This document shows, one piece after another, positions 20,822 to 21,006 of a DNA stretch of 61,045 nucleotides (position 1 is its first letter; each line of letters begins with the position of its first letter). The position numbers and the translations under genes are program-made. Under the pieces are notes generated by a model. That model ran no database searches. It was not told the DNA's origin and saw only the letters and a list, made by a program, of their open reading frames with translations. Source of the DNA: Candidatus Gottesmanbacteria bacterium RIFCSPLOWO2_01_FULL_39_12b. GTDB lineage: Bacteria > Patescibacteriota > Microgenomatia > 2-02-FULL-39-11. The stretch is from assembly GCA_001780955.1 (NCBI GenBank), contig MFJR01000012.1, positions 1 to 61,045 of the forward strand, in the 5' to 3' direction.

Positions 20822-21006
20822 CAAATAAAAACTCGTCCTTTATAATTAAATAGGGACGAGTCAGAACCCGCGGTTCCACCCTGATTGGTAAGAAATGTTA
20901 GTCCATTGATCTTACCCTCTTAATTTTGTTTTCCAGCTCCGGCATGCCCTTGCCATCTTCGCTTAGTGATTATGATGAAGTATGACATATTTAGTAGTGG
21001 AGCGGA
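20822..21006 (-). promoter_or_regulatory. T-box leader (tRNA-sensing transcription attenuator) upstream of purU
   Basis: Minus strand reads AAUCAGGGUGGAACCGCGGGUUCUGACUCGUCCCU (16/18 to the T-box consensus AAUUAGGGUGGUACCGCG, plus the downstream UCGUCCCU). A competing terminator CUCGUCC-15 nt-GGACGAG-UUUUUAUUU follows. Stem III is GGUAAGA/UCUUACC. The Stem I candidate is closed by GCUCC/GGAGC. Confidence 0.75.

Follow-up and report, generated by a model that had tools for sequence, protein, structure and literature searches.

The DNA analysed here, referred to as the window, is a whole stretch of 61,045 nucleotides (nt), and the subject of this study is a T-box riboswitch that lies in front of its purU gene. 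The gene is on the minus strand (19954..20808) and encodes formyltetrahydrofolate deformylase, with ACT and formyltransferase domains (ACT and Formyl_trans_N in Pfam). In profile searches PurU passed the TIGR00655 equivalog with 397 bits against a cutoff of 286, and matched NF004684 with 406 bits; an earlier note on this DNA, made from its letters alone, had named the gene correctly. The gap upstream of purU is 321 nt long and carries the T-box on its minus strand, to which all leader coordinates below refer. The G+C content of the window is 37%. The GroEL that it encodes shares 85-91% identity with proteins named, without exception, Candidatus Gottesmanbacteria, which assigns the organism to that group. 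The source is a genome fragment of the Candidate Phyla Radiation (CPR)/Patescibacteria (Microgenomates). We consider it quite likely that the gap encodes a glycine-specific, transcription-attenuating T-box of minimal architecture, and that within Candidatus Gottesmanbacteria a narrow clade uses this element to control purU.

T-boxes carry a conserved 14-nt sequence, AGGGUGGNACCGCG, on the 5′ side of the antiterminator. The leader contains AGGGUGGAACCGCG at 20882-20869, which fits this sequence and was aligned at high posterior probability to RF00230, the T-box model of Rfam. The T-box sequence and antiterminator together occupy 20852..20882, as indicated by the RF00230 alignment, folding and covariation. 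Antiterminator helix A1 pairs AGGG (20882-79) with CCCU (20855-52), and helix A2 pairs GCGGG (20871-67) with CUCGU (20860-56) across a 6-nt loop. Between them lies a 7-nt bulge, UGGAACC (20878-72), the UGGA of which (20878-75) would pair with the 3′-UCCA end of a tRNA. The intrinsic terminator (20823..20860), recognised by folding and conservation, consists of a hairpin in which CUCGUCC (20860-54) pairs with GGACGAG (20838-32) around a 15-nt loop, followed directly by the U-tract UUUUUAUUU (20831-20823). The ATG of purU, at 20808, is 14 nt past the U-tract. The 5′ arm of the terminator is the 3′ half of the antiterminator, with CUCGUCC common to both folds, and the leader has the mutually exclusive antiterminator (with a 7-nt UGGN bulge) and terminator of the T-box family. 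Inspection of the sequence found the T-box core, antiterminator, UGGA bulge, terminator and U-tract all where the earlier note had placed them.

When the window leader was folded from its predicted start, the terminator fold was the minimum free energy (MFE) structure, at -39.7 kcal/mol, and the enforced antiterminator reached -31.1 kcal/mol. The antiterminator is therefore approximately 8.6 kcal/mol weaker than the terminator state; the terminator hairpin alone has a free energy of -12.8 kcal/mol. Folding of the six purU leaders (that of the window and those of contigs L004, L085, L088, L089 and L090) and of glyS relatives likewise gave the terminator as the MFE structure in every case, with the antiterminator less stable. 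The terminator was not detected in a simple promoter and terminator scan because its 15-nt loop exceeds the 8-nt loop limit of that scan. A translational mechanism was rejected, as a U-tract follows the hairpin, which stops 14 nt short of the ATG and leaves it uncovered.

The RF00230 model aligned end to end (model positions 1-219) to positions 20968-20849, with a score of 45.9 bits and E = 4.3e-9 in a search of 431 nt with permissive filters. By our own scaling this corresponds to an E value of about 6e-7 for the 61-kb window. The match is not a chance event, and a covariance model of our own, described below, found the T-box leader as its only match in the window. When the full window was scanned with Rfam at gathering thresholds, no family reached its gathering score, which for RF00230 is 93 bits. 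The score falls below this value because about 115 model positions, some 75 in Stem I and some 40 in Stem II, are naturally deleted; the remainder of the alignment is at high posterior probability. The earlier note had proposed an RF00230 search and had taken the lack of a hit above threshold as grounds for giving up the T-box. The outcome was divided, with a full-length match on the one hand and a score below threshold on the other.

To find related leaders we used PurU relatives of 89-92% identity from a large protein database, encoded on contigs L085, L088, L089 and L090. On all four the gap is again about 320 nt long, and the leader in it is clearly homologous. The purU locus of the window was also found on a 93-kb metagenome scaffold and on three other contigs. 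On contig L004 PurU is 100% identical, and the T-box is the same from Stem I on except for one base of the K-turn bulge and 2 nt of the linker. The upstream neighbours of the relatives differ, being EF-Tu, a glycosyltransferase or a short open reading frame (ORF) at a contig end, so that the element is kept in six leader variants and in at least three upstream contexts. Aligned leader positions are 92-98% identical, compared with 70-89% at four-fold degenerate purU sites, and the 100 nt upstream of the leaders are about 50% identical, which is effectively unalignable. Judged by these alignments, the purU leaders are under stronger constraint than synonymous sites.

Where the leaders differ, pairing tends to be kept. 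Changes in helix A2 are compensated, which is what the earlier note had hoped to see in the antiterminator of related leaders. A U-A pair of the terminator becomes U.G in relatives with pairing retained, and an A-U pair of Stem III is swapped to U-A in L085. Further changes affect the bulge bases of the K-turn (GAA, GAG, AAU) and the loop base 5′ of the GGC.

Two of the leaders, L088 (620-640) and L090 (1911-1932), carry an insertion of 14-15 nt in the apical region of the antiterminator, which extends helix A2 (GCGA-UCCU...AGGA-C-UCGU). The insertion keeps A2 pairing and the switch; it is absent from the window.

Stem I of the leader is ultrashort, spanning 29 nt (20935..20963) according to the RF00230 alignment, the MFE fold and covariation. 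At its base AGC (20963-61) pairs with GCU (20937-35). Above this helix is a K-turn, with the bulge GAA (20960-58), sheared G.A and A.G pairs between GA 20957-56 and GA 20939-38, and then U20955.G20940; the arrangement AGC-[GAA]-GA-U... / ...G-GA-GCU fits the GA motif of RF00230. The hairpin of 5 base pairs (bp), with GGCA/UGCC (20954-51 with 20944-41), closes a 6-nt terminal loop, AGGGCA (20950-45). The specifier GGC (20948-46) and the purine that follows it, A20945, form the 3′ end of this loop (20945..20948), and GGC-A occupies the terminal loop, not an internal loop, in all six purU leaders. What is missing is the long form of Stem I, with its AG bulge and distal loop, the double T-loop elbow platform, and it is here that about 75 model positions are deleted. 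The GGC and its purine are at the positions identified in the earlier note, which had however assigned them to a 3′ internal loop. Burial of the GGC in a stable helix would have spoken against its role as specifier; in folds from the predicted start with the short Stem I, the GGC was unpaired with a probability of 0.66-0.88. That note had also described Stem I as lacking a K-turn, whereas a canonical one is present. Its suggestion of a divergent T-box was right about the divergence and understated its extent, since Stem II and the whole distal part of Stem I are both absent.

The internal-loop placement belongs to a reading of the element as a canonical T-box with a long Stem I (GCUCC...GGAGC, with an inner helix UGUCAU-A-CUUC / GAAG-AUGGCA). 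The MFE fold of the window does contain this helix when about 40 nt of additional upstream sequence is included. To compare it with related leaders independently of any alignment, the upstream 70 nt were paired against the proposed 3′ strand of Stem I and the duplex energies were compared with those of shuffled sequences. The duplex of the window has -10.7 kcal/mol, about 2.4 standard deviations better than shuffles, whereas the five related leaders gave -3.0 to -6.7 kcal/mol, equal to their shuffle means. The 5′ strand of the long helix is absent in all five, no conserved upstream partner strand was found among them, and their MFE structure is the short K-turn hairpin even with upstream sequence included. 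In the window this 5′ strand (UGUCAU-A-CUUC) coincides with the predicted extended -10 box at which leader homology begins. Moreover, a K-turn, AG bulge and distal loop are all lacking from the long model; the short one has a textbook K-turn and covariation. The long helix is thus a coincidence specific to the window, and we regard a canonical Stem I as extremely improbable.

The minimal leader proposed here also has no Stem II with S-turn and no IIA/B pseudoknot, an absence that it shares with known glycyl T-boxes. Their place is taken by an A-rich single-stranded linker of 18 nt (20917..20934), corresponding to about 40 deleted RF00230 positions; its length differs among leaders. The linker ends in the purine motif AAGAG (20921-17), which fits RRRNG, and Stem III is followed by AA (20886-85), so that both flanks of the RRRNG-Stem III-AA motif of T-boxes (PMC7778990) are present. 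Stem III itself (20887..20916) is extended to 11 bp in the MFE fold and by covariation. It comprises an outer helix GGUAAGA/UCUUACC (20916-10 with 20893-87), then a bulge UC, and an inner helix AAUG/CAUU (20907-04 with 20897-94) with the loop GACUAA (20903-20898).

The apical hairpin of Stem III, AAUG-GAnUAw-CAUU (20894-20907), is shared by the purU leaders and the glyS leader of contig L158 (1160-1180), with flanks that vary, and is absent from the other minimal leaders described below. It holds a second UGGA, the same tetranucleotide as in the proposed tRNA-binding bulge.

Leaders of the same design were found by scanning metagenome contigs with the pattern GGCA-N3-8-GGAGC-N40-70-GGGTGGAACCGCG, which occurred at no fewer than 80 loci. 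Most of these are canonical glyQ or glyS leaders with a long Stem I. Among the matches listed, about 14 are minimal leaders, in which a sigma-70-type promoter immediately precedes a K-turn and a hairpin of 3-5 bp whose terminal loop has GGC-A at its 3′ end; Stem II is absent and the terminator has a U-tract. The gene downstream, where present, encodes an alpha2-type glycyl-tRNA synthetase (GlyRS), as on L158, L215, L097, L111 and L165. The leader of L121 has the loop AGGGCA, as in the window, on a different stem (CCCGA/UCGGG). In L158 both Stem III as a whole and its apical hairpin are homologous to their counterparts in the window, and the GlyRS is closest to Patescibacteria/Woesebacteria proteins. 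The L215 leader, from a Patescibacteria metagenome-assembled genome, was reached through its GlyRS protein and is therefore independent of the DNA pattern; it shows the minimal design before glyS, again with GGC-A at the 3′ end of the loop. Where tested, minimal leaders scored 34-50 bits on RF00230, and a canonical control (L099) scored 93. Scores in this range, set against a threshold of 93, mean that standard Rfam annotation misses minimal leaders.

Two further sequence types of minimal glyS T-box can be distinguished. Type A (L097, L111, L128, L131, L142 and L161), with a GlyRS cluster annotated as Anaerolinea sp., is the most frequent minimal glyS type among the matches listed. Type B comprises L105, L110, L129, L165, L170 and L174, and several of these contigs are labelled human gut metagenome. 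A Candidatus Woesebacteria glyS locus (L216) has the same neighbourhood as L215, with recO upstream and mraZ downstream, and its 47-nt gap (9953-10001) holds no T-box. The element is therefore patchy within Microgenomates, not universal.

To examine covariation, a covariance model was built from three purU leaders with explicit structure and used to align 16 minimal leaders (alignment A5). MAFFT misplaced Stem I and the antiterminator of the diverse leaders, and the covariance-model alignment was used instead. Standard pairs form in 95.2% of cells of A5, as against 41-48% when the partners are slid by 1-3 columns, and none of 500 shuffles reached the observed pairing values. Compensatory changes, on both sides of the pair, were seen in 17 of 28 pairs. 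The hairpin pairs of Stem I flip between C-G and G-C in proportions of 8:8 and 13:3, its base helix is 100% paired, and the K-turn is kept in 16 of 16 leaders. In Stem III all 11 pairs show compensatory changes, and 96.6% of cells are paired.

These results bear on whether the same riboswitch uses a third contact or a helper, either an extended Stem III that stacks on or touches the tRNA, or a K-turn-binding protein that rigidifies Stem I. The 11-bp Stem III, its apical hairpin kept in purU leaders and L158, and the strict conservation of the K-turn would suit such an addition, as would the finding that an engineered ileS T-box bound tRNA with about 6-fold higher affinity once its Stem III had been lengthened by 11 bp (bioRxiv 10.1101/2023.02.28.530422). 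The Anaerolinea-type minimal leaders, however, have short, ordinary Stem III hairpins, so that a long Stem III is not a feature of the class. We regard a third contact or helper as possible, though rather less likely than its absence.

The promoter of the purU leader is predicted at 20979..20987, where the extended -10 element TGTCATACT marks the start of homology among leaders. The equivalents in L004, L085, L088, L089 and L090 are TGGTATACT, TGTTATACT or TGGTATATT, and the AGC of Stem I follows the extended -10 box by 11-15 nt. Transcription would start near 20972, about 10 nt before Stem I, giving a predicted leader of about 145 nt from start to U-tract. In the window the -10 box ends 30 nt before the GGC. 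Of the 12 minimal leaders with a strict consensus promoter match, 11 show a distance of 23-38 nt and the twelfth (L131) one of 88 nt. Among the matches listed, canonical glycine T-boxes from the same contig scan have a median distance of 82 nt (73-165). Promoter-to-specifier spacing is thus bimodal, separating minimal from canonical leaders.

Comparison of L004 (1-215) with the window (20988-21129) showed that the DNA upstream of the -10 box is unrelated in the two, with a recombination breakpoint exactly at the promoter.

The identity of the tRNA was judged from the loop and the bulge. Five purU leaders have the terminal loop AGGGCA, and L085 has AUGGCA; the only frames common to all six are GGC and GCA, and only GGC is followed by a purine. 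GGC and UGGA together, the six conserved leader variants, and the same combination of GGC-A and UGGA before glyS bear out the earlier proposal that a T-box reading tRNA-Gly lies before purU. A 6-nt loop offers several frames, and a different tRNA might be read through one of them: Ala by GCA, Gly-CCC by GGG, Arg by AGG, or Met by the AUG contained in the L085 loop, the last being attractive in that Escherichia coli PurU is reportedly responsive, allosterically, to methionine as well as to glycine. GCA, however, is followed by the U of the stem and not by a conserved purine, and GlyRS is what the homologous leaders sharing this loop end and bulge regulate. A bulge that reads UGGA requires U73 as the discriminator, and bacterial tRNA-Ala and tRNA-Met have A73. 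Reading of another tRNA is, in our judgement, very unlikely.

The motifs, the mutually exclusive folds, their conservation and covariation, the placement of the promoter and the linkage to the gene are established at the level of sequence. Against the proposed control of purU by a tRNA-Gly-specific T-box stand the following points. The linkage to purU is confined to PurU proteins at least 89% identical. Relatives with 64-68% identical PurU (L091-L093, L095 and L096) have upstream gaps of 21-53 nt and no T-box, and neither a regular-expression search nor the covariance model found one at 80 distant purU loci of species-representative GTDB genomes (PurU about 60% identical; Proteobacteria, Acidobacteria and others). 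On contig L094 (PurU 83%) the whole T-box is lacking, with about 190 nt missing between GCAAGGGGT and the ATG (L094:276-400). A strict promoter scan gave no match in the window, no good -35 element is present on the minus strand, and the predicted transcription start rests on promoter consensus and conservation. Alignment A5 was fitted to the model structure, and most of its glyS members were chosen by a pattern that needs GGCA, GGAGC and the UGGA core; no part of Stem III, and nothing of the 5′ half of Stem I, belongs to this selection motif. Finally, the GCC anticodon and U73 of the organism's tRNA-Gly are assumed from general bacterial knowledge; a tRNA gene search found none in the window or in 30 retrieved loci.

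Contig L094 has the same EF-Tu neighbourhood as L085 and L089, and its purU reading frame is broken near the C-terminus. It represents either riboswitch loss accompanied by gene decay or an assembly error.

The linkage of the T-box to purU is young and narrow. The similarity of the leader to that of L158 suggests recruitment of a glyS leader, the probable origin being a glyS T-box within the same lineage. A copy moved before purU by rearrangement might also be a decaying relic that no longer senses tRNA and acts, for example, as a constitutive partial terminator. The narrow phylogenetic linkage, the loss of the element from L094 and the frequent recombination in upstream regions would be in keeping with such a relic, and tRNA binding might be poor where elbow and Stem II contacts are missing (PMC7583486). 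However, all functional motifs are intact in six variants, and the leader is more conserved than synonymous sites. Its changes are compensatory or limited to loops and linkers, even the insertion in L088 and L090 keeping A2 and the switch, and the same minimal design precedes the essential glyS in distant lineages. A relic is therefore improbable, and a working T-box remains the reading that we prefer.

Compared with described T-boxes, the element combines traits of two groups. The transcriptional glyQS/glyS T-boxes of Firmicutes (B. subtilis, G. kaustophilus, O. iheyensis) share with it the GGC and following purine, the UGGA bulge, the basal K-turn, the absence of Stem II and of the IIA/B pseudoknot, the flexible linker, RRRNG-Stem III-AA and the antiterminator/terminator switch (PMC7583486, PMC11404447). 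They differ in that their Stem I is long and carries an internal specifier loop, an S-turn and a distal double T-loop elbow platform that is reported to be important, whereas Stem I of the window ends at the specifier. The host is a CPR bacterium, and the gene downstream encodes PurU instead of the GlyRS that marks the glycyl T-box class. The ultrashort Stem I ileS T-boxes of Actinobacteria share the short Stem I, the specifier in its terminal loop and the lack of an elbow platform (bioRxiv 10.1101/2023.02.28.530422). That class was described in 2023 as translational and limited to ileS and tRNA-Ile (same source); it acts through a sequestrator of the ribosome-binding site and depends on Stem II, which is essential in this type (PMC7913692). 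The window has in contrast a U-tract terminator and a Gly specifier, with no Stem II, sequestrator, ileS gene or Ile specifier. The element joins an ultrashort Stem I to a glycyl discriminator that is based on a terminator and has no Stem II. Its core features make it a T-box, and it departs from most family members in two traits, the long Stem I and the curated score.

The insertion in L088 and L090 resembles stem Sa of the staphylococcal glyS T-box (PMC4574755, PMC9177973) in being lineage-specific and in lying in the antiterminator/terminator domain. Stem Sa differs from it in sequence, size and position, the window has no insertion, and the staphylococcal Stem I is of the normal long form. 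In the literature searched, no paper linked T-boxes with purU or formyltetrahydrofolate deformylase, or with the Candidate Phyla Radiation, and truncated forms of Stem I go unmentioned in a 2024 survey of the idiosyncrasies of glycyl T-boxes.

From these features we infer a scheme for tRNA binding, the response to charging, the start of transcription and the physiology. Uncharged tRNA-Gly would pair its GCC anticodon with the GGC in the Stem I terminal loop, and its 3′-UCCA end with the UGGA of the bulge, stacking on the antiterminator and the long Stem III. This contact would stabilise the weaker antiterminator, and RNA polymerase would read through into purU. Charged tRNA-Gly would be unable to bring this about, the terminator would form, and transcription would stop 14 nt before the ATG. 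Recognition of the tRNA would rest on two base-paired contacts, with no elbow platform and no Stem II brace.

A shortage of glycine would in this way lead to more PurU, which converts 10-formyl-tetrahydrofolate (10-formyl-THF) to THF and formate, and the THF could then serve serine hydroxymethyltransferase (SHMT) in the conversion of serine to glycine. In an organism with few one-carbon sinks, PurU may act as a release valve that keeps glycine synthesis going. E. coli PurU is said to be tied in a similar way to glycine status and to the balance of THF and one-carbon THF; its control is at the protein level, by a small-molecule effector, whereas the control proposed here would be transcriptional, through the charging of tRNA-Gly. 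We regard the rationale linking PurU, THF, SHMT and glycine as plausible. Two published accounts cite PurU as having a role in the balance of THF and one-carbon THF (PMC6720381, PMC3261824).

On the wider scale, we lean towards the existence of a class of two-contact transcriptional T-boxes in Patescibacteria and Chloroflexota that score below the Rfam threshold, one of which would have been recruited from glyS to purU in a single CPR lineage. T-box use in CPR and Chloroflexota is probably under-counted by Rfam-based annotation. If control of purU is real, the T-box regulon reaches past genes for aminoacyl-tRNA synthetases, amino-acid biosynthesis and transport to a folate one-carbon enzyme, and PurU would limit glycine supply in an organism of reduced metabolism. 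The minimal leaders would also show, as a natural experiment, which contacts between T-box and tRNA can be dispensed with. According to the literature, transcriptional T-boxes need the Stem I platform, and Stem II is essential where Stem I is truncated; both are missing here, in leaders that are nevertheless conserved, covary and stand before the essential glyS. At about 145 nt, the purU leader would be a very compact tRNA sensor, useful for engineering.

Several further observations concern the surroundings of the leader. On L085 (3734-3850), L086, L088 (396-510), L089 and L094 the T-box promoter is preceded by a conserved block of about 75 nt, which is absent from the window, L004 and L090. 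It contains a hairpin, CCCAA-N5-TTGGG, followed by GATTATACAAT and a 9-codon mini-ORF, MKN(S/P)CARGE*. Elsewhere in the window, a methionyl-tRNA synthetase gene (27054-28583, minus strand) has no T-box match by Rfam or by our own covariance model, which indicates that the aminoacyl-tRNA synthetase genes of this genome are not generally under T-box control.

Downstream of purU, at a distance of 127 nt and on the same strand, is an ORF of 643 amino acids (17895-19826, minus strand). It has no Pfam match, and its only NCBIfam match is a weak one of the MoaA/radical-SAM-like kind; in the window it may be co-transcribed with purU. The gene 3′ of purU differs among relatives, including L085, L088 and L090, and this variation of the downstream neighbour indicates that the leader travels with purU.

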